Part shown: piece after piece, positions 1,416 through 62,518 of the stretch
How the letters are laid out: every line of letters starts with the position of its first letter
Numbering within the stretch: the first letter of the stretch is position 1
NCBI GenBank assembly: GCA_964561855.1
Contig: CAZLQP010000002.1
Coordinates: forward strand, 64,475 to 128,474
DNA: 64,000 bases
Reading direction: 5' to 3'
From: an uncultured Burkholderiales bacterium
GTDB lineage: Bacteria; Actinomycetota; Acidimicrobiia; IMCC26256; JAGPDB01
The notes under the pieces: model-generated
Database searches by the model: none
What the model saw: only the letters and a program-made list of their open reading frames with translations
Told to the model about the DNA's origin: nothing
Program-made: the position numbers and the translations under genes

Positions 1416-1487
1416 CCGGAGGACTGACCCTCCAAAAGGGACGAATTGCCTGAGCGATTAGTCCCTTTTGGAGGGTCAGTCCTCCGG
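1416..1487. repeat. GC-rich palindromic intergenic repeat, full-length copy (27-bp perfect arms ccggaggactgaccctccaaaagggac, 18-nt loop)
   Basis: Arms verified as exact reverse complements. The same element recurs at 39322, 56950, 35092 and 47363. Confidence 0.9.
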
Positions 1488-1491
1488 AAGG

Positions 1492-2376
1492 TTAAAGGGC
1501 TTTGACTATTTCTTCCATTGCTGGGCCGATTTCAGTCGGATTCAACACTACTGTTGCTCCAGCTTTCTCAAGTGCATCCATTTTTGACTGAGCTGTACCT
1601 TTACCACCAGAAATAATTGCACCAGCATGCCCCATCTTTTTACCTTCTGGCGCTGTAACTCCAGCAACATAAGCAACAACAGGTTTGCTCATCTTATTGG
1701 CAATAAATTCAGCAGCTTCTTCTTCAGCAGTCCCACCGATCTCGCCAATCATAATTACAGCTTTAGTGTCAGGATCTGCCTCAAAACGTTCTAGACAATC
1801 AATATGACTGATTCCAGGAACTGGATCTCCACCGATTCCAACACACGTTGTCTGGCCGATCCCTCTCATCGTGATCTCATGGACAGCTTGGTAAGTTAGC
1901 GTTCCTGATCGAGAAACAACTCCAACTGGACCGCCAGCCATTGCAATTTGGCCTGGGATAATTCCAATGTTGCACTCGCCAGGAGTGATGATACCTGGAC
2001 AGTTTGGTCCAAGGATACTTGTATTTGGAAATTCAGTTTTCACATGATTATAGAACTGCGCTTCATCGTGACTAGGTACGCCTTCAGTGATCACAACAAC
2101 TAGTTCCATACCAGCTTCAGCTGCTTCTAAAACCGCTCCCTTAACACCAGGTGCTGGAATGAAAATACAACTTGCTGTTGCACCAGTAGCTTCTTTAGCA
2201 TCTGCAACAGTCGCATAAATAGGAACACCATCAACATCTTCGCCTGCTTTTTTTGGATTAGTTCCAGCGACTACCTGGGTACCATAATCGCGATTTCGTA
2301 GACCGTGAAAACGCCCTTGGCTACCTGTTAAACCTTGATAGATAACCTTGGTGTCTTTGTTTACATAAATACTCAT
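1492..2376 (-). CDS. sucD: Succinyl-CoA ligase alpha subunit
   Basis: 294 aa. VIYQGLTGSQGRFH and SRSGTLTYQ motifs. Downstream of sucC. Confidence 0.96.
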   Translation of the reverse strand: MSIYVNKDTKVIYQGLTGSQGRFHGLRNRDYGTQVVAGTNPKKAGEDVDGVPIYATVADAKEATGATASCIFIPAPGVKGAVLEAAEAGMELVVVITEGVPSHDEAQFYNHVKTEFPNTSILGPNCPGIITPGECNIGIIPGQIAMAGGPVGVVSRSGTLTYQAVHEITMRGIGQTTCVGIGGDPVPGISHIDCLERFEADPDTKAVIMIGEIGGTAEEEAAEFIANKMSKPVVAYVAGVTAPEGKKMGHAGAIISGGKGTAQSKMDALEKAGATVVLNPTEIGPAMEEIVKAL

Positions 2377-2389
2377 ACTTCTCCTTAGT

Positions 2390-2425
2390 TAGGGTCAGAC
2401 CCTATTCGCTATAGGGTCTGACCCT
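2390..2425. repeat. Nested palindromic repeat (tagggtcagaccctat / atagggtctgacccta, 4-nt loop) in the sucC-sucD spacer
   Basis: Read directly. Each arm contains the self-complementary 13-mer agggtc(a/t)gaccct. It lies immediately 5' of the sucD Shine-Dalgarno AAGGAG. Confidence 0.85.
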
Positions 2426-2458
2426 ATAACAGTTTTGGGAGTTCGGACTCCCGATTGA

Positions 2459-3598
2459 TCACTTCGAAAGTTCCACTGCCTTTTTAGCTGCGTCCAACAT
2501 TGTTTTTGCTGGAATAACTTTCGGATTTGGATTCGCTTCTAAAATAGCGCGTCCTTCTTCGGCATTAGTTCCATCTAAACGAACAACAATTGGTGACTTC
2601 AATTCAACACGCGAAGTTGCTTCAATCACACCGTTTGCGACATCATCGCATTTCGTGATTCCACCAAATATATTCAAAAAGATAGCCTTGACTTTTTCGT
2701 CACTATTAACAACCTCGATTGCATTAGCCAATAACTCGGCGTCTGCACCGCCTCCGACATCTAGAAAGTTCGCAGGAGTTCCACCGACTTGATTAACAAC
2801 ATCCAGAGTAGACATAACAAGTCCTGCACCATTTCCTATGATTCCAATTTCTCCGTCAAGACCAATGTAATTTAAGCCTTTTTCTTTCGCCATTTTTTCT
2901 CTATCATCCAGCTCTTGTGTGCCTTCATAAGCTTCCCATTCTGGATGACGATAACTGGCATTTTCATCTAGGGTTACTTTTGCATCAAGGGCATGGACTT
3001 TGCCTTGGGGAGTTAAAATCAGCGGATTGATTTCAGCTAAATCACAATCTCCTTCTACATATGCTCGATATAATTTCAACAAAATTTCTACTGCACCTTG
3101 CTTAGCTTCTTCATCTAAGTTGGCAGCTTCAACCCACGCTCTACATTGTTCCTCAGTTAGGCCAATGTATGGATCAATCCATATTTTCGAAATCGCATCT
3201 GGATTTTCTTCTGCAACTACTTCTATTTCTACTCCACCTTCGGCGCTTAACATCCCAAGATGCTTTTTTGCAGAACGATCTAAAGTAAATGATGCGTAAT
3301 ATTCCTTTTCAATATCGCTTGCATGCTCAATCCACAATATTTTTACAATGTGCCCTTTGATATCGAGCCCTAGAATATTGTTTGCATGTTCACGAACTTC
3401 CGCTTCGTTATTTGCCAGCTTTACTCCGCCCGCTTTACCGCGTCCTCCAACTAAGACTTGGGCCTTAACCACAACTGGATAACCGACTTCATTTGCTACT
3501 GCAACAGCAGATTCAACATCAGTAACGGCCTTTCCTGCACTTACTGGTATATCAAATGAAGCAAATAGTTCTTTACCTTGATACTCTAAAAGATCCAT
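2459..3598 (-). CDS. sucC: Succinyl-CoA ligase beta subunit
   Basis: MDLLEYQGKELF N-terminus, ATP-grasp region. The ATG at 3598 sits 5 nt after AGGAG and is preferred over the GTG at 3604 in the ORF track. Confidence 0.96.
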   Translation of the reverse strand: MDLLEYQGKELFASFDIPVSAGKAVTDVESAVAVANEVGYPVVVKAQVLVGGRGKAGGVKLANNEAEVREHANNILGLDIKGHIVKILWIEHASDIEKEYYASFTLDRSAKKHLGMLSAEGGVEIEVVAEENPDAISKIWIDPYIGLTEEQCRAWVEAANLDEEAKQGAVEILLKLYRAYVEGDCDLAEINPLILTPQGKVHALDAKVTLDENASYRHPEWEAYEGTQELDDREKMAKEKGLNYIGLDGEIGIIGNGAGLVMSTLDVVNQVGGTPANFLDVGGGADAELLANAIEVVNSDEKVKAIFLNIFGGITKCDDVANGVIEATSRVELKSPIVVRLDGTNAEEGRAILEANPNPKVIPAKTMLDAAKKAVELSK

Positions 3599-3677
3599 CA
3601 ACACTCCTATTTAGGATGGTATATATTAACGCTGATACGTTACTAGAAGGCCTTAGGAAATCTCTAAATTAGAGAGC

Positions 3678-6215
3678 CTAACTAACTATTTGTAACGGAG
3701 GTGAGAGTGAAGCCATGAAAATTCGGATTTTGTCATCTGGAAAATCCACTTTAATCTCAACATCTCCGTTTCTTTGCTCTGAAACTTCTACTACTCTACC
3801 GGTTCCATATTTGGAGTGCTCAACAACTATACCGGCTTTAAAGGCATCGACATCAAAATCATCTGGGATCATGCTGAAATTCTCATCATTTACATCATCC
3901 GAAACATTACCCCATATTCGGTCGTGGATTTCTTGAGATGCTGCTCTATCTTGTTCGGCTCTTCTTTGCTTGTAGATAGAATTGCCGACGCTTTGCCCAA
4001 ATACTTTGCCACCACTGACTTCATCTGGGTGGATATCATCAAAGACCACATCGTCATATACATCTGAATATCTCGACTTGGGTCGAGATGGTTTTGAGCT
4101 TTGCTGAGTGTCATTAAAACCAGCAGGATCACGGTTAGCATTCACTAACTCGGCTGGGATTTCTCTTAAGAACCTGCTTGGCGAATAGTAATCTACAGAT
4201 GCATACATCATCCTCGACAGCGCACAGCTCAAATAGAGTTTTTCCATCGCCCTAGTAATACCCACATAACAAAGTCTGCGCTCTTCCTCTAGTTCTGAAA
4301 CATCTCCCATTGAGCGTTCATGTGGAAATAATCCTTCTTCTAATCCGACGATGAATACAACAGGAAATTCAAGGCCTTTGGCGCTGTGTAGAGTCATTAG
4401 CGTCACAAAATCTTCACTCTGATTTGTCTTATCTGATTCACTCAAAAGTGATACAGCTTCTAGAAAAGCATCGACTCTTTGTATTGAAGAATTGATATCA
4501 ACCAACCGCTCATCTTGGTCTCGAAATGCTTCCAATCGGTCTGAAAGGCCATCACTTTGCAATACTTTATTTGCAGTGCGCTCTGCATTTTTTTCTAAAG
4601 CCAAATCAAAATCATTAGCTTGTGTTACTAGTTCTATCAAGTTTTCAAGTCTTCCTTGAGATTCGAATGAACCCTCATCTTCTAATGCTTTAATATATCC
4701 AGTCTCTTTTAATAAGGAATCCAAAATGTCGGAAACTCTAAGCAATTTAGAATTAAGAATAGAATCGTATGCATCGTTTAAAGTTTCAAGACCTTTAATG
4801 ACTTTCTTTGAAACACCTATATTTTGAGCAGTCCTACAAGCCTCACCAAAAGAAACATCATTAATTCGAGCGTACTGTGCAATCTTTGAAACACTAGTTT
4901 CGCCAATTCCCCTTTTAGGTTCATTGATGATTCTTCGCCAAGATGCTTCGTCTGCTGGATTGACTAGCACCCGCAAATAAGCAATTGCATCTTTGACTTC
5001 TTTACGGTCATAAAACTTTGTACCCCCAATCAACTTATAAGGAATAGATCTTCTTATCAGCTGCTCTTCTATCAAACGCGATTGCGCATTTGTCCTATAA
5101 AAAACAGCAATATCATCGAAAGAATATTCTGATCTGAGCTCACTAATTGTCTCAGCTACATAATTTGATTCACCACGGTCGTCATTTGCATAATAAACAT
5201 TTATTTGTTCACCAAGACCTTTGTGAGAAACTAAATCTTTCTTATGTCTAGATGTGTTGTTTGATATAACCGCATTTGCAGCATTAAGAATGTTTTCTGT
5301 CGAACGATAGTTAGTGTTGAGCACAACTACTTCTGCATTTTGATATTGCTCTTCGAACCTCTGAAGATTTAGATGATCTGCTCCTCTAAATTTATAAATC
5401 GACTGGTCAGCATCACCTACTACTGTAATGTTTTTATGCTTTTGCGAGATTAGGTTCACTAGCTCCCATTGTGCAAGGTTTGTATCTTGGAACTCGTCGA
5501 CCAATACATGCGTGAAACGACTTTGATATTTTTCTCGCTTGTCTTCATGGTATTTTAAGAGTTCAACGCATTTAATCAAAAGATCGTCGAAATCAACGGC
5601 ATTAGCTGCCCGCAATCGGTGTTCATATTCGGCATATATCTTCGCAACAGTTGTTTGTGTCTCCATTTCGGCACGATCTAAAGCTTGGGCTGGCGTAATC
5701 AACTCATTTTTAAAACCGGAAATTGTCTTATATAAGCTTTTAGCTGCAAACCTTTTAGAATCGGCACCTATTTCTCGCCGCGAATACTCAATCAGCCTTG
5801 TTGCATCTGCAACATCATATATAGAAAAACCGCTTTTTACCCCAACTGGAGATCCATCAATACGCAATATACGAGCACAAGCAGAGTGAAAAGTAGATAC
5901 CCACATTCTTGCAGCAATAGGTCCGACTAAATGTGAAACGCGTTCAACCATTTCTGCTGCAGCTTTATTTGTAAACGTGATGGCTAAAATTTCGAATGGA
6001 GAAACTTTTTGTTCTGCAATTAAATAAGCAATTCTTCTAGTAAGCACTCGAGTTTTACCAGAACCGGCACCGGCCACTACTAACAGCGGGCCATTACCAT
6101 AGGTCACTGCATTATATTGCTGTTCGTTTAAATCCGCAGTAATTTCGTTCGAAGTACTTCTTAGCTCTTGATCTTGCAAAGATACGTCTGAGAAAATGTT
6201 CGCTGGAAAAGTCAC
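3678..6215 (-). CDS. pcrA: ATP-dependent DNA helicase PcrA/UvrD family with a long C-terminal tail ending in a Tudor-like segment
   Basis: 845 aa. Walker A AGAGSGKTRVLT, DEFQDT, and helicase motifs through VGITRA. The C-terminus has HSKYGTGRVVEV. Confidence 0.93.
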   Translation of the reverse strand: MTFPANIFSDVSLQDQELRSTSNEITADLNEQQYNAVTYGNGPLLVVAGAGSGKTRVLTRRIAYLIAEQKVSPFEILAITFTNKAAAEMVERVSHLVGPIAARMWVSTFHSACARILRIDGSPVGVKSGFSIYDVADATRLIEYSRREIGADSKRFAAKSLYKTISGFKNELITPAQALDRAEMETQTTVAKIYAEYEHRLRAANAVDFDDLLIKCVELLKYHEDKREKYQSRFTHVLVDEFQDTNLAQWELVNLISQKHKNITVVGDADQSIYKFRGADHLNLQRFEEQYQNAEVVVLNTNYRSTENILNAANAVISNNTSRHKKDLVSHKGLGEQINVYYANDDRGESNYVAETISELRSEYSFDDIAVFYRTNAQSRLIEEQLIRRSIPYKLIGGTKFYDRKEVKDAIAYLRVLVNPADEASWRRIINEPKRGIGETSVSKIAQYARINDVSFGEACRTAQNIGVSKKVIKGLETLNDAYDSILNSKLLRVSDILDSLLKETGYIKALEDEGSFESQGRLENLIELVTQANDFDLALEKNAERTANKVLQSDGLSDRLEAFRDQDERLVDINSSIQRVDAFLEAVSLLSESDKTNQSEDFVTLMTLHSAKGLEFPVVFIVGLEEGLFPHERSMGDVSELEEERRLCYVGITRAMEKLYLSCALSRMMYASVDYYSPSRFLREIPAELVNANRDPAGFNDTQQSSKPSRPKSRYSDVYDDVVFDDIHPDEVSGGKVFGQSVGNSIYKQRRAEQDRAASQEIHDRIWGNVSDDVNDENFSMIPDDFDVDAFKAGIVVEHSKYGTGRVVEVSEQRNGDVEIKVDFPDDKIRIFMASLSPPLQIVS

Positions 6216-13380: not shown

Positions 13381-13462
13381 TGGAACTCCTTTTTATAGTT
13401 CCAGGAATCTTAGCCCTATTTCGAAAACCCAGTAAAACGAATTTGAACTCTAAAAAACGAAA

Positions 13463-13509
13463 AAGGGTCTGACCCTATAGATCGGATCGATCTATAGGGT
13501 CAGACCCTT
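13463..13509 (-). terminator. groES intrinsic terminator built from the agggtc(a/t)gaccct palindromic repeat (22-bp arms, 3-nt loop, then TTTCGTTTTTT on the minus strand)
   Basis: Arms verified as exact reverse complements. A U-rich tract follows on the transcribed strand. Confidence 0.85.
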
Positions 13510-13905: not shown

Positions 13906-13948
13906 CCTGGGTGAAGGGTTAATTGTCCGAATAACCCAAAATGGGGGA

Positions 13949-14953
13949 TCAGACCCCCAGCTTCCAGGTGGGGTTAATGCCAGTCGTTAGTGGAGACGGA
14001 CCATCAAGTTCGTATCTTATCTTTCCGGTAATAGCTATCATCGCTGCATTATCTGTGCACATTGACCGCTGAGGTATTAGAGCACGAATCGAATACTTGT
14101 CAGCAAGCTCTTGGGCCCTAGATCTCAAATAAGAATTTGCGGCAACTCCTCCGCCAATTGAGAAAGCTTTCGACGGTGTGCCACGAGAATTTAACAATTC
14201 AATAGCAGCTTCGCTTTTAGATATTAACGAATCAACTACCGCTGCTTGGAAACTTGCACACAAATCTTCTACCTTTGCATCTGGATTATCTCTGACAACA
14301 TGTTTCATTGCTGTTTTCAATCCAGAAAACGAAAAATTGAACGGATCTTTTTTCAACGGACGAGGAAGATTGAATGCTTTAGGATCTCCCTTTTCTGCAA
14401 GCTGATCGATCTTTGGTCCTCCTGGATATCCAAGTCCAAAAAGTCTTGCTACCTTGTCGTAGGCTTCTCCAGCAGCATCATCAATAGTGGCACCTAAAAT
14501 CTCATATGCCCCTGGTTCATTAACGATCACAACCATTGTATGACCTCCAGATACCAACAATGAAACATGAGGAAACTCAACATTTTCATGTTCTAAAAGC
14601 ACGCTCAAAATATGTGCCTCATGATGATTGACTGCCACGAAATCTTTGCCTAAAGCATAAGCGTATGCTTTTGCAGCAGTAGAGCCCACTAACAATGCCG
14701 CAGCAAGTCCAGGTCCGGTACATCCAGCAAATAGATCAACATCACTTAATTCAATATCTGCTTGTTCACAACTTAATCTAACAACATTGTTTACCATTTC
14801 AATATGGTGTCTTCCAGCTAGTTCTGGAACCACTCCTCCGTATTTAGTTTGAACATCAATTTGGCTTGATACAACAGAACTTAAAAGAACATCATCTTTA
14901 ACAACTGCAGCTGCGGTTTCATCACATGAAGATTCGATACTTAGTATGATCAC
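13949..14953 (-). CDS. tsaD: tRNA N6-adenosine threonylcarbamoyltransferase TsaD
   Basis: ILSIESSCDETAAAV and HHxEAH motifs. The GTG at 14953 forms a GTGA overlap with the rimI stop and follows AAGGTGG. Confidence 0.93.
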   Translation of the reverse strand: MIILSIESSCDETAAAVVKDDVLLSSVVSSQIDVQTKYGGVVPELAGRHHIEMVNNVVRLSCEQADIELSDVDLFAGCTGPGLAAALLVGSTAAKAYAYALGKDFVAVNHHEAHILSVLLEHENVEFPHVSLLVSGGHTMVVIVNEPGAYEILGATIDDAAGEAYDKVARLFGLGYPGGPKIDQLAEKGDPKAFNLPRPLKKDPFNFSFSGLKTAMKHVVRDNPDAKVEDLCASFQAAVVDSLISKSEAAIELLNSRGTPSKAFSIGGGVAANSYLRSRAQELADKYSIRALIPQRSMCTDNAAMIAITGKIRYELDGPSPLTTGINPTWKLGV

Positions 14954-19641: not shown

Positions 19642-22600
19642 TTACAACCAATACTGTTCAGCAAGATCCACAACAGGCTTCGTCAGAAGTTCCATAATGC
19701 TTACTTTTTCGAGAATAGTTTCATCAAAAGAATCTTTTTGCTCAGTAACAGCATCTCTTAAAGCAAACAATCTTTGTTTATACCCTTCCAAAATACGCTT
19801 TCGAGCTTGAAGTGAAATCTCTAATTCATCTTGTAAATCAATATGCAAAAGCGTAATACCTGTAGTCTTTGTTCGCTTCACTTCTGGGATTAAGATCACA
19901 TTGCGCATGTCGCTTTTACCTTGTGTTATCCAGACAACTTGTTCACGTGCGGTAAGGCTCTTCGTACCACGCAATTTAGGGTTGTCAGAAATTCGCGATT
20001 TAAGATCTTTAGCGCTACCAACTTGCTCTATGATCACCAAGTTAGCTTCACCAGAAGAGACATCGCCTTGAATTTCATATCGAGTATGACCCGTTATAGA
20101 TGCAACCATTTCATCTAATGCAAGCAAAGTACGAATCACAGGATATTGCAACGTATCTCTTTCGATACCCTTCTCTAATAGATAGGAAACACTTGGCGAT
20201 CGCAAAAGCGTGTCATCAGATCTAGAAATACCGACTGTTACCGTCTTTGCTTGGTGTCTGATCGCATCAATTGGACGGGTTAATTGATCAATCGATCTTG
20301 TTAATATCGAAACTGCACAATTAGCTAGCACTTGTGGAGTTTGCACACCTTGACATTGGTCAGCTAATAGCGCGGGCATGAACGGAGGCGTTAGAGCTAC
20401 GAATAACTTCGTTAGATTAGCCGCATCACTAGCATCCAAGATGGCATCATATTGCCTGTCAGCCAACATCTTGAAGTATTCAGTTGACGGTGTAGCAAGT
20501 TTTTGGCCAAGTTTTGAAAGTCCCATTGCAGTATCAAGTTCGCTAGGAGTTAGATCTGCTAGCGCCCCTCGAGCTTCTCTTAAAACTTTGGCCGTTGAAT
20601 CAATAGCTCTTGCTGATTCATAGCCAAAAATATGGCCTGCCATAACTGAAAGTATGAAACTAAGGTGTTTGTTAGTCTTAGGCACTGTAATTACGGTATC
20701 TGTAGAATCGAATCGTTCAGATACATCATCGGTTATGACAATCGGACATGCTTTATGCGCTTTATATATCGCGACTTCTTTTGCTACGTCATCAGCATTG
20801 GATCCGTCTAATCCTGTTGCACACACAACAATAAGAGGTTCCGAAGATAAATCAATATGTTTTTTATCTTCGGTTGAATCTTCTGCAATTGCTTTGTAAC
20901 AAAGCTCTGAAGATTTAATCCTTATTTCTCTAGCAGCGATAGTGTTTGCGCCGTTTCCAACAGTTGCCCAAGATCTCCTGGATAAAACATTAGCCTTAGC
21001 AATCTCCCCGATTCTTTCCCGATTGGCTAAAACCTTGGCCATCAACTCAGGCAGTCCATAGAGACCATCTACTATTTGGTTCACTAATTCCTTATCCAAT
21101 TCAGATTCATTTCTGATCTGCTCAATGGCAATTGACAAATAGGCAGAAGCTGCGACTTGCGCATAGAAAGCTTTGGTAGACGCAACGGACATCTCCACAT
21201 CTCTACCACTAGATGTATAACACACACCATCGGCTTTAGAGGTGAGATCGCTACCTCTTCTATTTACAATCGCAATGATACTTGCACCGCGATCTTTTAA
21301 AAGATCGACAGTACGATTTGTGTCAGTTGTAGTACCAGACTGAGAAACCGCAATCGCAAGCACATTACTCATATCGCCTTTAAGCGCAAACCCCGATAGT
21401 TCAGTTGCGAGAGTTGCCTTCACATTAAGAGATGAATTTAAAGCATTGAAAAAGTATTCACAAGACTGAGCAGCGATTGCAGCAGTACCTTGACCTATTA
21501 AGAACACCTGATTTATTTTCCCTGATTTCAGGTGCTCTTGAATATGATCAGGAACAATGTCTTCAATAATTATTGGATAATAATTGTCGCCAATACGTTC
21601 AAACTTTCCATGCAATGTAGTAGAAAAACTTCTTGGTGCTTCGTTTATCTCTTTCCATAAATAGTGTTCGAACGATCCTCTATCGATATCTCGAGTTGTT
21701 ACTTCACTATTGATAATGTCATCTTCGTTGACTTCTAAATTCTGGCCGTCATAAGCAATCCGCACCAAACCTTCAAGGCTTCCAGCCTTTTCAGAATGTA
21801 GACAGAAGATCTGTCCCCTAGAAGAAACTGGCTGATTCGGATCATGTGGAGTTTCTCCATCTACTCGAACGTATTGTTCCGCTACTTCAACGACTCCATA
21901 AGGTTCGCTCGCAATCAAGTATTCATTTTCACCTAAACCTACAAAGAGGCCTTGTCCTCCACCACGCAAGGCTAGAAATAAACTTTCGGGTTCCGCCTGA
22001 GCCATCAATGAAACTGCTGTTGAGCCTTCAAACCGCGAGACGACTTTACGAAATGAGTTGATTACGTCTTCTTTATTGTTTTCTTTTCGCTCATGACTAT
22101 ATAAAACAGGAATCAACTTTGCATCTGTAGTTATCTCAGGATTTATGTCGCACTCTGCACGTAAAGCATCATGATTATCTATGTCTCCATTGAGTGCACC
22201 TAGAGCAACTTCAAAATTTCCGTTACTTAATTGCTCTGTCATGTCCAAAGGATGAGTATTATCTTCACTTATAACGCCCATAGATGCCCATCTCGTATGG
22301 GCCATAACCATTTCATGAGCATCAGTATTGCGAGAAATAATGTCAAACAAAAACTCGTCACTAGAAATTGAGTCGCGGAGAAATTTGACGTTGTCCCCTA
22401 ATTCCCCAATTTCTGCAGCTCGCTTGTATACGAAATATAGAATTGAAGTTGAATCTAGAAGAGCCTCACGCACTGTTCTATTGGTGAAGTTCGAATAGTT
22501 TCGTTTTTCAATTATCTCTCGGTCGTGTTCATCCAAATTTACATTTGTCAAAGAAAAACTTATACCTGCGCTGTCACGTCCGCGAACTTCGATACGATCT

Positions 22601-23049
22601 AAGCTTCGTAAAACTAAATTGATGGAACGATAGATTGCGATCACATTGTTAGGAATCGAGCTTAAATCTTGCTTATTCTGTGTTATGAGATCCGAGATCT
22701 GATCTGCACCAATACACGCATCTTGTTCTATTCTCCATAACGAATCATTAATTTCGATTAACTTATTTTTTGTGTCTTCATCGAGTTTTTCGCCATCGAG
22801 TATGCTTTGTGTTTTTTCACGTGCGTTTGCAGACTGATTTCTAAGTTGGTCGCAAAATTGTGAATTTTTTACTAAATTTATAACTCCACCAACGCTAATT
22901 GCTCTTTTAGCTAATTTTGACAACTCTTCAATATCGATATCATCGTTTACTGGATCCGTATTTATAACTTCGAGAATTGAAATCAGACCACTCAACTCAT
23001 CAGAAACTGGGTCTGTTTGTTTTCTAACTAAAGCTACAATTCCACACAT
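19642..23049 (-). CDS. Oversized GlmS-like glutamine amidotransferase (class II) with two SIS domains, 1135 aa
   Basis: MCGIVA N-terminal nucleophile, RGRDSAGI, HTRWAS, WKEINEAP, SQSGTTTDT. About 140 aa are inserted after the nucleophile strand and about 330 aa follow the second SIS domain. Adjacent to glmM. Confidence 0.75.
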   Translation of the reverse strand: MCGIVALVRKQTDPVSDELSGLISILEVINTDPVNDDIDIEELSKLAKRAISVGGVINLVKNSQFCDQLRNQSANAREKTQSILDGEKLDEDTKNKLIEINDSLWRIEQDACIGADQISDLITQNKQDLSSIPNNVIAIYRSINLVLRSLDRIEVRGRDSAGISFSLTNVNLDEHDREIIEKRNYSNFTNRTVREALLDSTSILYFVYKRAAEIGELGDNVKFLRDSISSDEFLFDIISRNTDAHEMVMAHTRWASMGVISEDNTHPLDMTEQLSNGNFEVALGALNGDIDNHDALRAECDINPEITTDAKLIPVLYSHERKENNKEDVINSFRKVVSRFEGSTAVSLMAQAEPESLFLALRGGGQGLFVGLGENEYLIASEPYGVVEVAEQYVRVDGETPHDPNQPVSSRGQIFCLHSEKAGSLEGLVRIAYDGQNLEVNEDDIINSEVTTRDIDRGSFEHYLWKEINEAPRSFSTTLHGKFERIGDNYYPIIIEDIVPDHIQEHLKSGKINQVFLIGQGTAAIAAQSCEYFFNALNSSLNVKATLATELSGFALKGDMSNVLAIAVSQSGTTTDTNRTVDLLKDRGASIIAIVNRRGSDLTSKADGVCYTSSGRDVEMSVASTKAFYAQVAASAYLSIAIEQIRNESELDKELVNQIVDGLYGLPELMAKVLANRERIGEIAKANVLSRRSWATVGNGANTIAAREIRIKSSELCYKAIAEDSTEDKKHIDLSSEPLIVVCATGLDGSNADDVAKEVAIYKAHKACPIVITDDVSERFDSTDTVITVPKTNKHLSFILSVMAGHIFGYESARAIDSTAKVLREARGALADLTPSELDTAMGLSKLGQKLATPSTEYFKMLADRQYDAILDASDAANLTKLFVALTPPFMPALLADQCQGVQTPQVLANCAVSILTRSIDQLTRPIDAIRHQAKTVTVGISRSDDTLLRSPSVSYLLEKGIERDTLQYPVIRTLLALDEMVASITGHTRYEIQGDVSSGEANLVIIEQVGSAKDLKSRISDNPKLRGTKSLTAREQVVWITQGKSDMRNVILIPEVKRTKTTGITLLHIDLQDELEISLQARKRILEGYKQRLFALRDAVTEQKDSFDETILEKVSIMELLTKPVVDLAEQYWL

Positions 23050-26357: not shown

Positions 26358-26470
26358 GTTTTGGCTCGATAAGTGAATCGTGAGCATTTGCAGCAAGTGA
26401 GGAGACCTTAGGCTCCGAACGTCCGCATAGCGGTGCGAAACAGCGAGCGATCGACTTATCGAGCCAAAAC
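26358..26470 (-). ncRNA. Unclassified multi-hairpin element, copy A (candidate structured RNA in the rplQ-truA spacer)
   Basis: 17-bp perfect outer stem (26358-26374 / 26454-26470) enclosing a 58-nt core (26384-26441). The core is 46/58 identical and co-linear with 59188-59245. The inner hairpins show compensatory changes. Confidence 0.6.
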
Positions 26471-35091: not shown

Positions 35092-35118
35092 GTCCCATTT
35101 GGAGGGTCAGTCCTCCGG
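35092..35118. repeat. Half copy of the palindromic repeat (gtcccatttggagggtcagtcctccgg) abutting the secY stop codon
   Basis: Matches one arm of the 1416..1487 element except for one base in the A/T tract. Confidence 0.8.
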
Positions 35119-39303: not shown

Positions 39304-39321
39304 TGTTGTTTTCCTTTTCTT

Positions 39322-39391
39322 CCGGAGGACTGACCCTCCAAAAGGTACTAATCGCTCAGGCGATTCGTACCTTTTGGAGGGTCAGTCCTCC
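39322..39391. repeat. GC-rich palindromic intergenic repeat, full-length copy inside the spc operon (rplF-rplR spacer)
   Basis: ccggaggactgaccctccaaaaggtac ... gtaccttttggagggtcagtcctcc. Same element as 1416..1487 in the opposite orientation, with a paired gggac/gtccc to ggtac/gtacc change. Confidence 0.9.
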
Positions 39392-39395
39392 TCTA

Positions 39396-39935
39396 CTACT
39401 TGGCTGACTTACCAGCTTTACGACGAACGTATTCGCCTTCGTAACGTATACCCTTACCTTTGTATGGTTCTGGCTTTCTGATTTTTCTGATATTGGCAGC
39501 AACTTGACCTACAAGTTGCTTATCGATTCCAGATACTTCAATTCTTGTTTGAGTTGGAGTCACAAAAGTAATTCCTTCTGGAGCTTCAAAAACTACAGGA
39601 TGAGAAAAACCAAGTGCCATATCCAACTTTGATGAACCTTGAGCATTTGCTCTATAACCCACACCTTGAATTTCTAAAGCTTTTGTATAACCCTCAGAAA
39701 CACCTACGATGTTGTTAGCAATCAATTGTCGAATCAGACCATGAAGAGCTTTGTTCTCTCGCTCATCATTAGCTCGAGCAACTTTTACTTCATTGTCTTC
39801 AACAGTTACTGTGATATTTTGTGGAATTTCGTTTTCTAGTTCGCCTTTAGATCCTTTGACCTTAACAACTGATCCAGAAACAGAAACTTCTACACCGCTA
39901 GGAACGGGAATCGGTTTCAATCCTACACGTGACAT
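39396..39935 (-). CDS. rplF: 50S ribosomal protein L6
   Basis: [18 protein letters not shown]-terminus. Confidence 0.97.
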
Positions 39936-40340
39936 TTACCACACCTCACAAAGTACTTCGCCACCGACGTGAGTTTCACGAGCTTGACGATCTGTTATTA
40001 CACCTTTTGATGTAGAAAGAATAGCAATACCCATTCCACCTAACACTCTAGGAATTTCATTTGACGGTTTATATATACGAAGACCAGGTTTTGAAACTCT
40101 TTTAATACCTGTAATTACTCTTTCACGCTTTGGTGAATATTTCATTTTAATATTCAAAACTTTATATGGTTTATCAGCTGGGTCTTCAACACTGAATTCT
40201 TCAATGAAACCTTCAGAATGCAATATTTTTGCAACTGCTTCTTTAAGTTTGCTTGAAGGCATTGATACTTGGTCATGCATAGCAATATTCGCGTTACGAA
40301 TACGGGTAAGCATATCTGCGATTGGGTCTGTTACGTTCAT
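39936..40340 (-). CDS. rpsH: 30S ribosomal protein S8
   Basis: [14 protein letters not shown] motif. Confidence 0.97.
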
Positions 40341-40352
40341 CTGCTTACCTCC

Positions 40353-40538
40353 TTACCATGATGCCTTGGTAACGCCGGGGAGTTCCCCATTGTGTGCCAT
40401 ATTTCTAAAACATATTCTGCAAAGGCCGAACTTCTTGAAAACACTACGTGGACGTCCGCAACATCTGCATCGTGTGTATCCTCGAACCTTGAACTTTGGT
40501 TCTCTTTGTTGTTTATTTACGAGAGCTTTTTTTGCCAT
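40353..40538 (-). CDS. rpsN: 30S ribosomal protein S14, short Zn-ribbon (type Z) form
   Basis: 61 aa. CRCCGRP...CRIC. Confidence 0.96.
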
Positions 40539-40557
40539 GTATTCCTCTACTTAGAAC

Positions 40558-41109
40558 CTATTGATTATCCGACTTAAACGGAAAACCAAGAGCTTGTAGT
40601 AATGCTTTACCGTGTTCGTTAGTTGTTGCTGATGTACAAATGGTGATGTCCATACCTCGAGGTGTATCAATATCGTCATAGTTGATTTCTGGGAAAATCA
40701 ACTGCTCATTGATACCAAAGGTATAGTTACCTCGACCATCGAAACTTTTTGGATTTAATCCTCGAAAGTCTCGAATTCTTGGAATCGCAAGAGTAACTAA
40801 GCGATCATAGAACTCCCACATACGATCTCCACGCAATGTAACTTTCGCACCAATCGCTTGATTCTCACGAAGCTTAAAACCAGCAATTGATTTTTTAGCA
40901 CGAGTGATCGCAGCTTTTTGACCAGATAGTGCTGTTAAGTCTTTTACTGCACCTTCAATCAAGTTACCTTGCTGTGTAGCTTTACCTACACCTGTATTGA
41001 TAACAATCTTTGTCAATGTTGGAACTTCATGAATGTTTTTTAGTTCCAAGTTTGATTTCAAGTTGTCAGCAACTTCTGATCTGAATTTTTCTTTTAGACG
41101 AGGAGCCAT
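40558..41109 (-). CDS. rplE: 50S ribosomal protein L5
   Basis: 183 aa, spc-operon position. Confidence 0.97.
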
Positions 41110-41435
41110 TAGAGATCACTTCCAGTCTTTTTTGAATAGCGCACTTTGACGCGCTTTCCGTCTTGTTCTTCAACGCGAACACCAACTCGAGTAGCTTGAC
41201 CATCTTGGTCAATTAACATCACGTTACTTACATGAATAGGCATATCTTTTTCGATAATACCTGCTTGCATAGTTGCACGTGTTTGCTTTTGGTGTTTTTT
41301 AGAAATGTTCGCACCTTCAACAAGAACTTTGTCTTTAGAAGGATATGTACGAATCACTTCGCCTTCTTTTCCTTTATTCTTTCCTGAGATAACACGAACT
41401 TTATCGCCTTTACGGATCTTCATAGTCTTAGCCAT
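41109..41435 (-). CDS. rplX: 50S ribosomal protein L24
   Basis: 108 aa. [23 protein letters not shown] motif. Confidence 0.97.
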
Positions 41436-43652: not shown

Positions 43653-44479
43653 TATGCGTCACCTTCTTTTTCTTCAGTTTTCTTCGTAGTCTTCTTTGCC
43701 TTAGGCGCAGCTTCTGTGTCTTCTGATTCAGTCACGGCTTCGCGCCCTTCGGGACTCTCGGAGCCTGAGGTCTCCTCGATCGCTGCAGATGTTCCTTCAT
43801 CAGAATCCACCGCAGCTTCGCCAGCCTTCTTAGCCGTAGTCTTTTTTGAAGTCGATTTCTTAGAAGCAGGCTTTTTCTCAACTTCTGAAGAATCCTCTAC
43901 ATCCGAGTCGGCCTTCTTCTTAGCTGGAGCTTTTTTAGCTTTTGGCTTGTCTTGGATTACTTCTTCATCTTCTGAAATTTCTTCATCAGTTGAAGCTGAA
44001 GCTTCCTCTTTAGCTTTTTGTGCAGCCTTAGATGCTTCTGCACGACGTCTGCGCTGTTCACGAGCATTAGCTGCACCTGAATTAGCTTCTTTCTGAGATT
44101 TCTTTTCAATCTCTTCTTCGCTCATGCGTTCAACAATGATCGTGATGTGACATGTTCGTTTAAAGATTCGAGTACCTCGTCCACGCGCACGTGCCCGGAA
44201 ACGCTTCAGCGTTGGACCTTCATCAACAAATGCTTCCGAAACTTTCAGTTCCTCTGCTGGAATCTGGTTGTTGTGTTCAGCATTAGCTATTGCAGAGTTA
44301 AGAAGTTTTGAGACTTCATGTGCTGGTCCACGATCACAAAGCAAAAGCTCAACTTGCGCTGCTTCTACATCTTTGTTTCTGATTAGATTTACTACTTGGC
44401 GAACCTTGTATGGTGAAGTACCAATATACTTCGCTACAGCTCGCACCTTTGGGCGCTCTTGGAGCTCTGTATCAGCCAT
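43652..44479 (-). CDS. rplV: 50S ribosomal protein L22 with a Lys/Ala/Glu-rich C-terminal extension of about 155 aa
   Basis: The L22 core ends near ITIIVERM. Total length is 275 aa. Confidence 0.95.
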
Positions 44480-47362: not shown

Positions 47363-47390
47363 TACCTTTTGGAGGGTCAGTCCTCCGGTA
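47363..47390. repeat. Half copy of the palindromic repeat (gtaccttttggagggtcagtcctccggtac) in the rplC 5' leader
   Basis: Matches the right arm of the 39322..39391 copy. Flanking gtacc/ggtac can close a small stem. Confidence 0.8.
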
Positions 47391-47604
47391 CTTTTGGCGT
47401 TTATTCACACCAACGCTCCGACAGTGCTGGGCACTCGGAGCGCGAGATCAGTTGTGTTATCTGGTTCCTTGGAACGGAATTGTTCTAAGGCCTTGATAAA
47501 CGTCGGTTAAAACGTGTAGCTAATTTTGTTTCGCAAAATTGGCAAGGTGATATATATTAGGGCAACTTTAGGGCTTTTGTACAATCGGAGCGAAAAGTTC
47601 TCAC

Positions 47605-47653: not shown

Positions 47654-49441
47654 TTATCTGGCAATACCTCGAGGCTTGATTGCTTGCCAAACAGATTTCG
47701 CAGTTTCAACTACTTGTCCTGCCCTTTGAGCAACCTGGCTCGCTCTTTCAGCTACTCTTCCAGCTAGATGTGCACCATTTGCAATTCTTGATGTTGAAGT
47801 AAATGGAGCAGGCTTTGACTCGATAACCGGTGATTCGCTCTCTTGAGCAACTACAGGCTCTGCAACTGGCACTACAACAGGAGCAGGTTCAAACGTTGTA
47901 GGTTGAATTGTTCCTAATAAAGCACCAGCCAAAAGGTTACCTTCGGCTTGTGAAAGCACTATTGGAGCTGTCTTAACAGTTGTCGCTTCAGGGTTCAATC
48001 TTAGTGATGCTGGTAATAATGCATCTGGCACTGAATAACCTTGCATCTGTGAAACTCGATTCTCGCCTTGAATATATGCTGGCTGAACTTCTGGTTCATT
48101 CGCAGGTGTTGATTCGATTGTTGAACTTGCAGTGGTAGTAGGTTCTGGAGTTAGAAATGTTTCAACTGGTGTGAAATATGGAGTTTCTGGTTCAGCCCAA
48201 AGCAGTGGAGGTGGTGTTGGAACCCCTGAGCTTTCGACAACTGGTTGAACTACAGGTTCTGAAAAGGCAATTTCTTCTGTCGCCCAGTCGTAAAGCTTTG
48301 GTCGATCAACTGTCATATCTACAACTGCTGGTTCAAAAGGTACTTCTGGAGTTTCAAAAATAGCTTCGAATTCGTCGATTACAGTTGGAGATTGTTCAGT
48401 TTCAGGAAATCCTTCAGTGTTTTCGAAGATTGCATCGATTTCAGCTGCAAGTTCTGGATTTAGTTCTGTTTCTAGGCTTTCTTGTCCATCTTTTCTTCTT
48501 CTAGCCGCCGCTGCCGCAGCTGCAGATCCAGCAAGCAATGCAGCTCCTGCGCCAACAGCTCCACCGCCGACCATAAGACCAAGAATCGGATTTATTCCTG
48601 TTCGCGGCAAAGTACCTTTAGGTCCTTCTGGCTGAGCTTGAGGTTGAGGTTCTGCTGGTGGAGCAGGTTGCGGAGCAACTGTTGTTGGAGCCTCAGTTGT
48701 TGGAGGTTCAGTTGTTGGAACAACAGTTGTTGTTGTGGTTGTAGTGGTTGTCGTTGTAGTTGTAGGAATCTCAGGTTCTTTTATTCCACATTCGTCTACT
48801 AAAAATGCCATCGCTTCTTCAAGAGTGAGAGGATTGTCTCCTTCTTCTTGAAGAATTCTCAAAGCTTCTTCAAAACCTTCAGGAGTTGTGATATCAACAT
48901 CTCGAAGTTCTAAACCTTCAAGAAATTCTGGACATGCACCTTCGTCATGAGGAATTGTTGTAGTAGTAGAAGGAGTTGTTGTTGTAGTAGTAGAGGCTGG
49001 AGGTTCAGTTGTTGTAGTAGTTGAAGGGTGAGTTGTAGTTGTTGTAGAAGCTGGTGGCTGTGTTGTAGTCGTTGGTGGTTCAGTAGTTGTTGTTGGAATT
49101 GTAGTTGTAGTTGTAGGAACTGGCTTTGGCTTTCCACACTCATCAACTAGATATGCATTAGCTTCAAAAGGAGTCATTTCTCTTTCGGAAATAAGGATTG
49201 TATATGCACTTTCCCAACCAGCAGGAGTAGTAATATCGATACCTCTTAGTTCAAGACCTTCTAAGAATTCTTCACAACCACCTTCATCTTGAACGAGTGT
49301 AGTTGTAGTGCCATTAGCACCCACTGGAGCAGCGTTATTTATGGCAAGACCAGCACCACCACCGAACAATGCTGCTGTTGCACCAATGGAAACAGCTGCT
49401 CGTCTGATTGGATTTGGTTGTCTTACTTTTTTGGGAGCCAT
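47654..49441 (-). CDS. Thr/Pro-rich exported protein with two copies of a two-Cys domain, an internal LPRTG + TM + RRRK sorting-signal-like segment, and a tail of about 280 aa
   Basis: 595 aa. N-terminal signal-like segment. Repeats at residues 53-103 and 167-219. LPRTG at residues 278-282. AAAGGA RBS 6 nt before the ATG. Confidence 0.8.
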   Translation of the reverse strand: MAPKKVRQPNPIRRAAVSIGATAALFGGGAGLAINNAAPVGANGTTTTLVQDEGGCEEFLEGLELRGIDITTPAGWESAYTILISEREMTPFEANAYLVDECGKPKPVPTTTTTIPTTTTEPPTTTTQPPASTTTTTHPSTTTTTEPPASTTTTTTPSTTTTIPHDEGACPEFLEGLELRDVDITTPEGFEEALRILQEEGDNPLTLEEAMAFLVDECGIKEPEIPTTTTTTTTTTTTTVVPTTEPPTTEAPTTVAPQPAPPAEPQPQAQPEGPKGTLPRTGINPILGLMVGGGAVGAGAALLAGSAAAAAAARRRKDGQESLETELNPELAAEIDAIFENTEGFPETEQSPTVIDEFEAIFETPEVPFEPAVVDMTVDRPKLYDWATEEIAFSEPVVQPVVESSGVPTPPPLLWAEPETPYFTPVETFLTPEPTTTASSTIESTPANEPEVQPAYIQGENRVSQMQGYSVPDALLPASLRLNPEATTVKTAPIVLSQAEGNLLAGALLGTIQPTTFEPAPVVVPVAEPVVAQESESPVIESKPAPFTSTSRIANGAHLAGRVAERASQVAQRAGQVVETAKSVWQAIKPRGIAR

Positions 49442-49535: not shown

Positions 49536-50468
49536 TTATCTTGAAACTGGTTCTTTTTGTGGACAATCTCTAGCCAATACTGCTCCACCATTGATTCGCA
49601 CAATTGATCTCGGATGATTTGCCCCCAAGTTGCGCGCATTTTGTGCGAAGTCAGAACCTTGAATCACCATGCCTGTTTTCCCAGTTGGGACAGTATCCCC
49701 ATCCAAGAAACGATCTACGGCATCGGTTTCACCAGAATTGAGGTGTTCAACATACTCTTCGTCTAACAGCTCTGGTCTTAGTTGTTGAAAAATATCAGCC
49801 TTTTGTTCTTCCAACTCTTCAATTTGAGTGTCAAATTCACTCTTTTGTTCCAAATATTCATCGATTCTTTGATTTCTAAGTTGATCTATATAGTCCTTGA
49901 GCTGGTCAAAGAAGCTCAAATCTGCAATTGCGACTACAAATTCTTCCATCTGAGGATCAAAAATGACTCCGTCTGGTGTTTCAGAGAGACCTTGCCCATA
50001 AATTGGCAGATACATTTCTTTCAAATTTTCGAAGGCATAGCGCAAAACAACACTATTTTTTCCGCTTGGAGTTATCCCTTCGCTAAGAGCAAAAAGTCCT
50101 TCTAATTCAGTTCTAATTGAATCTTTACTTGGGTAAAAGCGAGGTCGCAATGGTAGTAGTCCAGATTCAAGCTGATCTATAGCTTGTTGCTCAAAAAGTG
50201 AATTGTCGCCTAACCCCCATTTCAAATGGCTTTTCTTCGACAATCTGGTTTGTCGCTTCAAAGCAGCCTCGATTACGACTCTTACTTCTTTGCCAACACG
50301 GTTTTCTATACCTCGTAAAACGTAATGCAAAGCCATCGGGTTTGAAATGACATTTTGGTGGTTACCTACAACAGACATTGAGCTTTGATATTGATTGATT
50401 CTATATTTTTCGAAAAAACCTAAATTGCGATCAATATCGTCACTGATTGCGTCATTCCTAGCGCCCAT
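49536..50468 (-). CDS. Hypothetical cytoplasmic protein, 310 aa, no family recognised
   Basis: Long ORF with an AGGA RBS 6 nt upstream. Contains a coiled-coil-like acidic segment (EYLEQKSEFDTQIEELEEQKADIFQQL). Confidence 0.65.
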   Translation of the reverse strand: MGARNDAISDDIDRNLGFFEKYRINQYQSSMSVVGNHQNVISNPMALHYVLRGIENRVGKEVRVVIEAALKRQTRLSKKSHLKWGLGDNSLFEQQAIDQLESGLLPLRPRFYPSKDSIRTELEGLFALSEGITPSGKNSVVLRYAFENLKEMYLPIYGQGLSETPDGVIFDPQMEEFVVAIADLSFFDQLKDYIDQLRNQRIDEYLEQKSEFDTQIEELEEQKADIFQQLRPELLDEEYVEHLNSGETDAVDRFLDGDTVPTGKTGMVIQGSDFAQNARNLGANHPRSIVRINGGAVLARDCPQKEPVSR

Positions 50469-50587: not shown

Positions 50588-50905
50588 TTATGCAGTCTGG
50601 ATTTTAATCTCGATGTCAACACCTGCAGGAAGATCAAGGCGTTGAAGAGATTCAACAGTATTTCCTGTTGGTTCCATAATATCGATTAGTCGCTTATGAA
50701 TTCTCATCTCAAAGTGTTCACGAGCATCTTTATCTACGTGTGGAGAAGTGGTAACTGTATAACGGTGTTTTTCGGTTGGAAGAGGGATAGGTCCTACAAC
50801 TCTGGCCTTAGTTCTAACTACTGTTTCTACGATTTTTTTAGATGACTGATCGATTAATTCATGGTCATATGCTTTTAGTCGTATACGAATTTTTTGGTCT
50901 TGCAT
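50588..50905 (-). CDS. rpsJ: 30S ribosomal protein S10
   Basis: [19 protein letters not shown]... 105 aa from the ATG at 50905. The ORF-track N-extension is rejected. Confidence 0.96.
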
Positions 50906-51026
50906 TCCTATTCCCTTGTCAAACAGCGGTTTTGCTTTTGTATCACAAAATAACAGAGGAAATACTAGTTCAAATATCATGCTTAAAACAAATGCAAGAC
51001 ATTTACCGATTCTATAAGATGTCTAA

Positions 51027-56949: not shown

Positions 56950-57028
56950 CGGGGGACTGACCCTCCATAATGCTCAAAAGGGACACATTATGTGTCCCTT
57001 TTGAGCATTATGGAGGGTCAGTCCCCCG
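56950..57028. repeat. GC-rich palindromic intergenic repeat, longest copy (79-nt perfect palindrome) just after the fusA stop
   Basis: cgggggactgaccctccataatgctcaaaagggacaca t tgtgtcccttttgagcattatggagggtcagtcccccg. Symmetry checked base by base about 56989. Confidence 0.9.
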
Positions 57029-57035
57029 GGTAGAG

Positions 57036-59120: not shown

Positions 59121-59154
59121 TTTTTTCTTTCTTTCGTTTTTTAAATATCTTAGA

Positions 59155-59282
59155 GTTTGGTGGTGGATCCAGCGAGTATCTGAGATCGCATTTGCAGCGA
59201 GAGAAGAGACCTTAGGCTCTTCTCGTCAGCGAAGCTGCGCGAAACGCGATCGAAGATAGTCGCTGGGTTCACCACCGAAAAC
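59155..59282 (-). ncRNA. Unclassified multi-hairpin element, copy B (candidate structured RNA in the rpsG-fusA spacer)
   Basis: Imperfect outer stem of about 23 bp (59159-59181 / 59254-59276, extendable). gatcgc/gcgatc helix. 58-nt core at 59188-59245, homologous to 26384-26441. Confidence 0.6.
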
Positions 59283-59288
59283 CGAGTG

Positions 59289-59774
59289 TTACCATCTAAA
59301 GTGAGCAAATGCTTTGTTAGCTTCTGCCATCTTTTGAAGGTCATCACGTTTTTTGATTGATGTACCAACACCATTTGCTGCATCGATAATTTCTTGAGCA
59401 AGTCGTTGCGCCATAGTTTTTTCACGACGTTTACGAGAGTGCTCTACAATCCATCGAATAGCTAAAGTTGTTGCACGACGAGGCTTTACTTCAACTGGTA
59501 CTTGGTATGTTGCACCACCGACACGACGAGAACGAACTTCCAAAGCTGGACGAACATTTTCGATTGCTTTTTTCAGCGTTGGAATTGGATCTCCTGCTTG
59601 CGCATCTTCTGTTTTCTTTTCCTTGACAATTTCAAGTGCGTCATAAACAATTTTTGCTGCAACAGATTTTTTTCCGTGCAAAAGAATTTTGTTAATTAAT
59701 TGTTGAACTACAACTGAATGATAAATCGGATCAGGTAATAGTTCTCTTCTGGGAGCTGGACCTTTACGTGGCAT
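59289..59774 (-). CDS. rpsG: 30S ribosomal protein S7
   Basis: [18 protein letters not shown] ... AFAHFRW. Confidence 0.98.
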
Positions 59775-60151: not shown

Positions 60152-60289
60152 TAAGGCTCTCCTTATTCCTTCAACGAGAGAAGGTTTGCTTTTCTTCGAC
60201 TATCAAAAGTCCTTACTAAGTTTTGACTTAGCTCCGGCAATCTTGATAAAAGTCAGCACGGCGCTCAGCAACGTCAAAACAGAAATCAT

Positions 60290-60319
60290 ATTCTACGCGT
60301 ATTGGACACCCTTGAGCAA
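60290..60319 (-). promoter_or_regulatory. Candidate str-operon promoter TTGCTC-18 nt-TAGAAT
   Basis: Read on the minus strand about 140 nt upstream of rpsL and downstream of the 60337..60391 terminator. Confidence 0.5.
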
Positions 60320-60336
60320 AATTGTGCGAAAAAGAT

Positions 60337-62500: not shown

Positions 62501-62518
62501 TTAACCACCCATTTCAAA

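Follow-up and report, generated by a model that had tools for sequence, protein, structure and literature searches.

Dispersed inverted repeats between genes, co-transcribed and with an effect on mRNA processing or termination, include the Correia/NEMIS, RUP, ERIC and RPE elements and the inverted pairs of DNA uptake sequences (DUS) of Neisseria. Closer to the repeats described here are the repetitive extragenic palindromic (REP) sequences, REPINs and BIMEs of Enterobacteria and Pseudomonas, which are mobilised by RAYT transposases (PMC3116915, PMC3337134, PMC3733652). In such systems the unit is an imperfect palindrome of 20-40 nt, an inverted pair of units makes up the replicating REPIN, extragenic copies number tens to hundreds per genome, and units flank a cognate, single-copy RAYT gene (Y1 HUH transposase). 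In the known REP superfamilies, one end of the unit bears a GTAG or CGTC tetranucleotide (PMC3733652), and the TIR repeats found beside the RAYT-like TIRYT genes have the common motif GGGGWSAS (Di Nocera et al. 2013, PMC3733652). We describe a family of short palindromic repeats (type A) in a 64-kb stretch of contig CAZLQP010000002.1 (the window), from a metagenome-assembled genome (MAG) of the class Acidimicrobiia. An earlier note on this DNA had proposed a single REP- or BIME-like family of seven intergenic sites; what it had observed was confirmed, and its interpretation was supported only in part. Type A consists of eight units at five loci within the window, all of them intergenic, and probably represents a lineage-specific set of REP/REPIN-like dispersed miniature palindromic repeats that have been copied into spacers and are transcribed within operon mRNAs. 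It adds one more case to a known kind of element and demonstrates no new mechanism.

Anatomy and intergenic placement of the type A repeats

With up to two mismatches allowed, the 16-mer GGAGGGTCAGTCCTCC has eight matches at five loci of the window, against 0.00 expected from 100 dinucleotide shuffles, in agreement with the earlier claim that its chance recurrence is negligible. Six matches are exact (1418-1433(-), 1470-1485(+), 35101-35116(+), 39324-39339(-), 39376-39391(+) and 47371-47386(+)) and two carry a single mismatch (56951-56966(-) and 57012-57027(+)), so that none of the eight exceeds one mismatch. Three of the loci are inverted doublets, and two are single units of 27-30 nt. A second sequence, AGGGTCWGACCCT, defining the hairpins hereafter called type B, has four matches at two loci (2391, 2413, 13464 and 13496), against 0.02 expected. 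The degenerate core GGWCNGWCC matches the window 13 times (1.8 expected), and 12 of these matches are intergenic. An inverted-repeat search recovered arms of 35 nt with 94% identity at 1415-1449/1454-1488, 32 nt with 97% identity at 39324-39355/39360-39391, and 39 nt with 100% identity at 56950-56988/56990-57028, together with perfect (100%) arms of 22 nt at 13463-13484/13488-13509 and of 16 nt at 2390-2405/2411-2426. All seven sites listed previously are present, with coordinates that were right to within 1-3 nt, and Pfam confirmed the genes named as their neighbours (sucD, sucC, groES, secY/adk, rplF/rplR, rplC and fusA). Spacers make up about 5% of the window on a crude gene map, and all seven sites lie inside them, as had been claimed; none of the eight type A 16-mers and none of the four type B 13-mers falls in coding sequence. 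The GC content of the elements is 49-63%, that of the window 39-43% (about 41% for the Acidimicrobiia MAG).

Alignment of the eight arms defines a type A unit of about 27-34 nt, (C.ATT.)GTMCC-TTTT-GGAGG-GTCAGT-CCTCC-GG. This unit is an imperfect palindrome in which CC pairs with GG and GGAGG with CCTCC, giving a stem of 7 bp that is interrupted by a TTTT bulge and closed by a loop of six bases; bulge and loop are identical in 8/8 arms, and the outer boundary is sharp after CCTCC(GG). The outer end reads CCGG and the inner end GTCC or GTAC, preceded by A or C, and a GTAG or CGTC end tag is not consistently present in the eight-arm alignment. In the doublets, two units stand head to head about a short centre, over a total of 68-79 nt.

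The first doublet (site 1, 1415-1488) has perfect 28-nt arms, TCCGGAGGACTGACCCTCCAAAAGGGAC, around an 18-nt centre and lies 3 nt past the sucD stop codon and 30 nt ahead of the start of a DUF4190 gene. The second (site 5, 39321-39391) is located within the spc ribosomal-protein operon, 4 nt past the rplF stop codon and 20 nt ahead of the rplR start. The third (site 7, 56950-57028), 7 nt past the fusA stop codon, is a variant: its palindrome, 39+1+39, is perfect, and it has the 16-mer variant GGAGGGTCAGTCCCCC, GGGGG/CCCCC outer pairs and 9 extra nucleotides per arm. One single unit, GTCCCATTTGGAGGGTCAGTCCTCCGG (35092-35118, plus strand; profile match E = 3.5e-10), begins 0 nt from the secY stop codon and 46 nt ahead of the adk start. 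The other, GTACC-TTTT-GGAGG-GTCAGT-CCTCC-GGTAC in the rplC leader (47363-47392, plus strand), lengthens its pairing to GTACC..GGTAC and forms a small hairpin of its own (RNA -14.1 kcal/mol, z -3.7). The doublets have stems of 32-39 bp, and their sense-strand RNAs fold at -60 to -80 kcal/mol with z-scores of -11.5 to -15.3 (site 1, -65.3 kcal/mol, z -11.5; site 5, -60.6 kcal/mol; site 7, -80 kcal/mol, z -15.3). The corresponding values for single-stranded DNA are -41.3, -38 and -51 kcal/mol for sites 1, 5 and 7, respectively.

The doublets at sites 1 and 5 are related by descent rather than by structure alone. Site 1 is identical to the reverse complement of site 5 at 65 of 68 positions, the loops and the 18-nt centre included, and direct comparison gives 59/68; a match of this extent, running through the centre, indicates that they are copies placed in opposite orientation to transcription, and not convergent hairpins. 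Two of the three differences form a compensatory pair that separates the subtypes GGGAC/GTCCC and GGTAC/GTACC. Each doublet is homotypic, and both subtypes are also found as single units. No direct repeats border any of the three doublets, which are therefore without target-site duplications.

Long perfect palindromes invite the suspicion, also raised in the earlier note, that the copies are assembly artefacts, in this case fold-back chimeras. Independent short-read Logan contigs from run SRR6318357 are equal to window positions 1461-3817, 39391-41181 and 56999-63039 with 0 mismatches and contain type B site 2 (2390-2426) in full and, for two of the type A doublets, one arm. Each of the three contigs breaks off at or within a type A hairpin, and the joined arms are present solely in the window assembly, as would suit an artefact. 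The arms and the full site 2 are nonetheless reproduced independently, the relatives have the same gene order across every element, and the centres consist of unique, non-palindromic sequence of a kind that an artefact would not make; taken together, these observations render a fold-back origin very unlikely, and we attach next to no probability to it. The contig breaks were also considered as proof of a high copy number, and this use was rejected as unsafe, because the perfect shared segments (28 nt) fall short of k = 31 and one of the breaks coincides with the outer edge of the element; hairpin-induced loss of coverage accounts equally well for the breaks. In practical terms, stems of 28-39 bp interrupt short-read assembly of the organism, and did so at all three sampled doublets of type A.

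Distribution in relatives and mode of spread

The nearest named relatives of the window's EF-G, L6 and SucC proteins are in Acidimicrobiia MAGs. The window was compared with about 145 kb of orthologous regions from the closest available relatives (L numbers below), with identities of 88-93% for EF-G, 82-87% for L6 and 86-91% for SucC. With the type A profile, the eight window arms were the only matches (E≤1e-4); in the relatives, nothing scored better than E = 0.37. The rplF-rplR spacer is 92 nt long in the window and 16, 54 and 30 nt long in L022, L023 and L024, respectively, the motif being found in none of the three; once the element is subtracted, the window spacer has the size found in the relatives. 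In the rplC leader, the unit is added between the conserved sequences CCAAAAG and AAGATA(C/A)GCCCG, taking the place of the left arm of the small hairpin that L023 and L024 have there. Past fusA, where the window has its type A variant, a canonical terminator stands in L011 and a long, unrelated hairpin in L009. Type A was not detected in the sucD-DUF4190 spacers of L026, L028 and L031, or in the secY-adk spacers of L022 and L023. The comparison of orthologous spacers proposed in the earlier note thus revealed spacers that are shorter or that hold unrelated hairpins. The profile search and the spacer comparison together indicate that type A is specific to the lineage of the window and that at several sites it occupies the place of an earlier hairpin.

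Looser relatives of the motif are present in other spacers. The variant GGAGGGTCCGACCTC(C) is found in L026 and L028; L031 contains a perfect hairpin with 26-nt arms, AAAAGGTCCGACCCTGGGTACGACCT, and six matches to GGWCNGWCC (1.1 expected), five of them intergenic. These similarities, which are individually not significant, are suggestive of a REP-like family that would be drifting between lineages. As a separate observation, long perfect or near-perfect intergenic hairpins with arms of 19-26 nt were recorded in L031 (1258-1324, 4997-5074, 14880-14922 and 17480-17532), L009 (11453-11516) and L022 (5907-5955), several of them with GGACTGTCC or GGTCCGACC cores, and long hairpins behind genes seem to be a trait of the entire clade.

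Outside the clade, a search for the exact 18-mer in 596 Gb of GTDB representative genomes gave six single matches in unrelated genomes, which is the chance level and implies that this collection lacks the species of the window; nine single, chance-like matches were obtained in IMG/VR. The 19-mer and the gapped doublet pattern had no match in JGI metagenomes, and neither plasmids nor phages contained a blastn match to the element. Rfam yielded nothing at gathering thresholds over the whole window, and a permissive search returned generic long-hairpin miRNA models, far below threshold.

We infer the mode of spread from these patterns. The identity of loops, bulge and centre across loci, together with the occurrence of both orientations, favours the copying of a master sequence over convergence of terminators. 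Copies would arise from this master sequence, which would be placed into short spacers in either orientation without target-site duplication, and would often have landed on pre-existing small hairpins. By analogy, the copying enzyme would act in trans and recognise single-stranded DNA hairpins, as would, for example, an HUH Y1 transposase of the RAYT/TIRYT type.

Transposition by another route was also considered. Type A might consist of miniature inverted-repeat transposable elements (MITEs), that is, internally deleted derivatives of an insertion sequence with the 28-nt arms as terminal inverted repeats, mobilised by a DDE transposase encoded elsewhere in the genome. The doublets do have two perfect inverted ends and a short centre, they occur in either orientation and they are lineage-specific. 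However, target-site duplications are lacking at all three doublets, the length of 68-79 nt is below that typical of MITEs, no insertion sequence with matching ends was found in the window, plasmids or phages, and single units exist, which a cut-and-paste element with terminal inverted repeats would not leave. This origin therefore appears quite improbable.

Several observations weigh against the REP/REPIN-like reading itself. Scanning of the open reading frames (ORFs) of the 64-kb window with Pfam and NCBIfam identified no RAYT or other transposase; as the earlier note had stated for RAYT genes, there is no transposase of any kind among these ORFs, those without a Pfam match included, and no RAYT is present among the genes called at the relatives' loci. 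The GTAG/CGTC tag of the known REP superfamilies was not found in type A (PMC3733652). We found no literature report linking REPIN/RAYT systems to Actinobacteria, so that the analogy crosses phyla, and no report on repeats of Acidimicrobiia. The relatives already hold a hairpin at four sites, and replacement or homogenisation of functional hairpins is, given these four, an alternative to insertion. The inner module, A4-GGKAC...GTMCC-U4, has the look of an ordinary bidirectional terminator of the clade. Finally, five loci, known for 64 kb, could be a local quirk of highly expressed operons.

With these points taken into account, the REP/REPIN-like reading remains the one that we consider probable. 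A bolder version of it, which we regard as rather unlikely, is that type A would be the first REPIN-like replicating population in Actinomycetota: a tagless one, copied by an enzyme that may be non-canonical or unknown, preferentially overwriting existing hairpins between genes, those within essential ribosomal-protein operons included, and co-opted there as operon punctuation that forms a barrier to RNase III or exonucleases 0-7 nt past stop codons. Work on REP/REPIN systems has been confined almost entirely to proteobacteria, and a family of equivalent structure in an uncultured, streamlined lineage of actinobacteria would widen their host range; the tagless type A variant would also offer material for asking what the mobilising enzyme recognises.

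Transcribed hairpins, type B and other features of the window

Each copy lies inside the sense transcript of a highly expressed operon, from which it follows that type A is transcribed. Its RNA, with a stem of 32-39 bp, would hold back 3' exonucleases, be a substrate for RNase III or serve as a weak attenuator punctuating polycistronic mRNA, and would less likely be an efficient terminator. The likeliest effects would be the guarding of upstream cistrons from 3' exonucleases and the cutting of the long stems by RNase III, and very stable double-stranded RNA between essential cistrons (rplF-rplR, secY-adk and sucC-sucD) probably shapes mRNA processing. In E. coli, a REP that lies no more than about 15 nt from a stop codon can reportedly stall ribosomes at termination (Liang, Rudd and Deutscher 2015); by analogy, stalling is conceivable for type A elements, which start 0-7 nt past stop codons.

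The strongest competing view treats the hairpins as terminators or attenuators typical of the clade, non-mobile and similar in sequence through concerted evolution (gene conversion or template switching), with transcription stopping at the inner GTMCC-UUUU before the 3' 16-mer is made. RNA cut before the 3' 16-mer does fold as a small 5' hairpin followed by an A4-stem-U4 hairpin, and the latter resembles ordinary terminators, such as AAAAGGACCTCA/TGAGGTCCTTTT past tuf and AAAAGGCACTCGAA in L026; since it forms before the 3' 16-mer is transcribed, partial attenuation is possible. The groES copy of type B is a textbook terminator with a U-run, and the relatives have hairpins at the same four positions. 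However, the U-tract of the inner module is just 4 nt long and is followed by GGAGGG, and the full stems of the doublets have no U-tract after them (GUUGUUUCG, GGAAGAAAA and AUAAAAUGG), the inner U4 ahead of the 3' 16-mer being the only one; intrinsic termination by actinobacterial RNA polymerase depends on a U-tract (PMC3993855). Moreover, sites 2, 4 and 5 divide the obligately co-transcribed cistrons sucC/sucD, secY/adk and rplF/rplR, with the next start codon 13-46 nt downstream and no room for a promoter. The co-transcription of these cistrons, the lack of a U-tract after the full stems and the requirement of the polymerase for one make efficient termination unlikely. Two copies are inverted with respect to transcription, and conservation of structure alone would not leave loops, bulges and an 18-nt centre unchanged from locus to locus. 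On balance, we consider it unlikely that clade-typical, non-mobile terminators account for type A.

It had also been proposed that the transcribed element tunes translation by mimicking or sequestering Shine-Dalgarno (SD, GGAGG) and anti-SD (CCUCC) sequences. Both pentamers are present in every type A arm, and the SD of rplR in L022, GGAGGA, occupies the position taken in the window by the left end of the element. The proposal found no support: the pentamers are either paired to one another or hidden inside a hairpin of -60 to -80 kcal/mol, the following start codon is 20-46 nt away from them, and the downstream genes possess SD-like sequences of their own nearer to the start. In addition, the outer side of the site 7 variant reads GGGGG/CCCCC, and G-rich stems suffice to account for the composition. 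A role of this kind is exceedingly improbable.

The hairpins of type B had been placed in the same family as type A, and this grouping was rejected. The type A profile misses type B (E≥36), and the two are joined solely by a core of 7-8 nt, GGGTCWGACC; to judge from their sequences, type B is a separate, smaller family of hairpins. Its first copy (site 2, 2390-2426; arms TAGGGTCAGACCCTAT and ATAGGGTCTGACCCTA, each of them palindromic; RNA -30 kcal/mol) lies between sucC and sucD, 13 nt ahead of the sucD start. The orthologous hairpins of L026 and L028 share its foot, AGGGU...ACCCU, and its conserved flank, AACUAAGGAG, and differ in the interior, which indicates that site 2 is an old hairpin with a perfected interior rather than a fresh insertion. 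The second copy (13452-13509, minus strand) consists of a hairpin with perfect 22-nt arms (13463-13509), followed on the sense strand by the tail UUUUUCGUUUUUU; a terminator scan identified it as a canonical intrinsic terminator with a U-run, 13 nt past the groES stop codon (RNA -40.4 kcal/mol). The two type B loci have CTATAGGGTC(W)GACCCT in common.

In Neisseria, inverted pairs of uptake sequences double as terminators. The elements could, in the same manner, be double-stranded DNA sites for a dimeric protein (a nucleoid-associated protein or regulator, or a signal for DNA uptake or chromosome organisation), each arm or TAGGGTCWGACCCTA palindrome being one site. In favour of this, each type B arm is a perfect palindrome of 13-15 bp, with distances of about 22 and 32 bp from one arm centre to the other. 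Unlike uptake sequences, however, no copy is inside a gene, the positions directly past stop codons and within operons are not regulatory, and the type A 16-mer, its loop being asymmetric, does not form a palindrome at the DNA level. We therefore hold binding sites of this kind to be highly unlikely.

Two smaller hairpins were identified near these loci. The first, GGGAGT-TCGG-ACTCCC (2437-2452), lies just past the sucC stop codon and has a positional orthologue, GGAGGGTCCGACCTC, in L026; its resemblance to the type A 16-mer is loose, weak and without statistical significance in the profile search. The second, TGGGGG-ATCAGA-CCCCCA (13942-13959; TGGGGG-TCTGAT-CCCCCA on the other strand), has the TGA stop codon of tsaD in its loop, and the identical 18-mer, TGGGGGTCTGATCCCCCA, is found in L028 (3321-3338) in a different spacer, that between sucD and the DUF4190 gene.

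A second repeat, unrelated to type A, has a core of about 58 nt, GTTTCGC.C..GC....G.GACG....GAGCCTAAGGTCTC.TC.CT.GCTGCAAATGC, and was found at 26384-26441 (-), 59188-59245 (-) and about 43716-43800 (+). Two of its copies, 79% identical and on the sense strand, are located 3' of rplQ and in the rpsG-fusA spacer, each within a different long outer stem (-50 and -66 kcal/mol); the third and weaker copy is antisense in the C-terminal extension of rplV. This repeat had no Rfam match, its motif was not found in the relatives' loci, and a hammerhead-like core considered for it was rejected, as there is no GAAA after the second stem.

The rplC (L3) leader beside the type A single unit (window 47392-47470, sense strand minus) is conserved with L023 (2600-2724) and L024 (2390-2513). 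In L024 the stem CGCTCCGAGTG...CACTGTCGGAGCG has changed in a compensatory manner (CGCTCCCAATG...CATTTGAGGAGCG). The leader had no Rfam match and is probably a ribosomal-protein leader RNA. The rpsJ gene (S10, 50588-50980) is parted from rplC by two non-ribosomal ORFs (49536-50468 and 47654-49441) with no convincing family match, the latter encoding a 595-aa low-complexity repeat protein. The relatives also have inserted genes between S10 and L3, indicating that the S10 operon is split in this clade. The rplV gene (L22; 43652-44479, minus strand) encodes 275 aa, the Pfam domain covering residues 14-117 only; L22 is also long in the relatives (238-271 aa), and the C-terminal extension is thus conserved in the clade. 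A glmS-like ORF with GATase and SIS domains (19642-23049, minus strand) is, at 1135 aa for the longest ORF, about twice the usual length, with Pfam domains from residue 246 onwards, and the excess may reflect an over-extended start, an insertion or an intein. Finally, an ORF for an acidic repeat protein (GAT/GAC-rich tandem repeats, no family match) lies directly behind the gene for an ECF-type sigma factor (60418-60924 and 60921-61565, both on the minus strand), and its product may be an anti-sigma partner.

Comparison with described repeat families

Intrinsic (bidirectional) terminators, the repeated terminator motifs of Actinobacteria among them, share with the elements of the window GC-rich stems flanked by A/U runs directly behind genes. 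An intrinsic terminator has a U-rich tract of about 7-9 nt right after its hairpin, and the groES copy of type B is such a terminator. The type A doublets differ from them in that they lack a U-tract after the stem, have loops, bulge and centre in common across loci, and sit between co-transcribed essential cistrons rather than at the end of a transcription unit.

Like the Correia, RUP, ERIC, RPE and DUS repeats, type A is composed of dispersed intergenic inverted repeats. Those small repeats are longer, or generate target duplications (TA in the case of Correia), or are also found within genes (DUS and RPE), whereas type A is shorter and has neither target duplications nor copies inside genes. 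The TIR/TIRYT repeats are more similar, in that they are moderately abundant, partly self-complementary and found as single units, dimers or clusters. The type A core AGGGTCAG fits GGGGWSAS at 7/8 positions, a match so short that it could be due to chance and is a lead only.

The likeness to REP and BIME sequences put forward in the earlier note holds for the palindromic unit, for its occurrence as single units and inverted doublets, and for its extragenic, lineage-specific distribution near stop codons; it does not extend to the GTAG/CGTC tag. As in REP/REPIN systems, a short, imperfectly palindromic unit is found singly and as inverted doublets that, with a short spacer, fold into a long hairpin; the copies are extragenic, often lie directly past stop codons and within operons, and have no target-site duplication; and the sequence is species-specific, with related yet different variants in the relatives. 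Type A differs from these systems in its tagless ends, in its actinobacterial host (Acidimicrobiia) and in the lack of a RAYT gene in the window, and its stems are perfect and, at 28-39 bp, longer than those of most REPINs, the copy number being that of 64 kb only.

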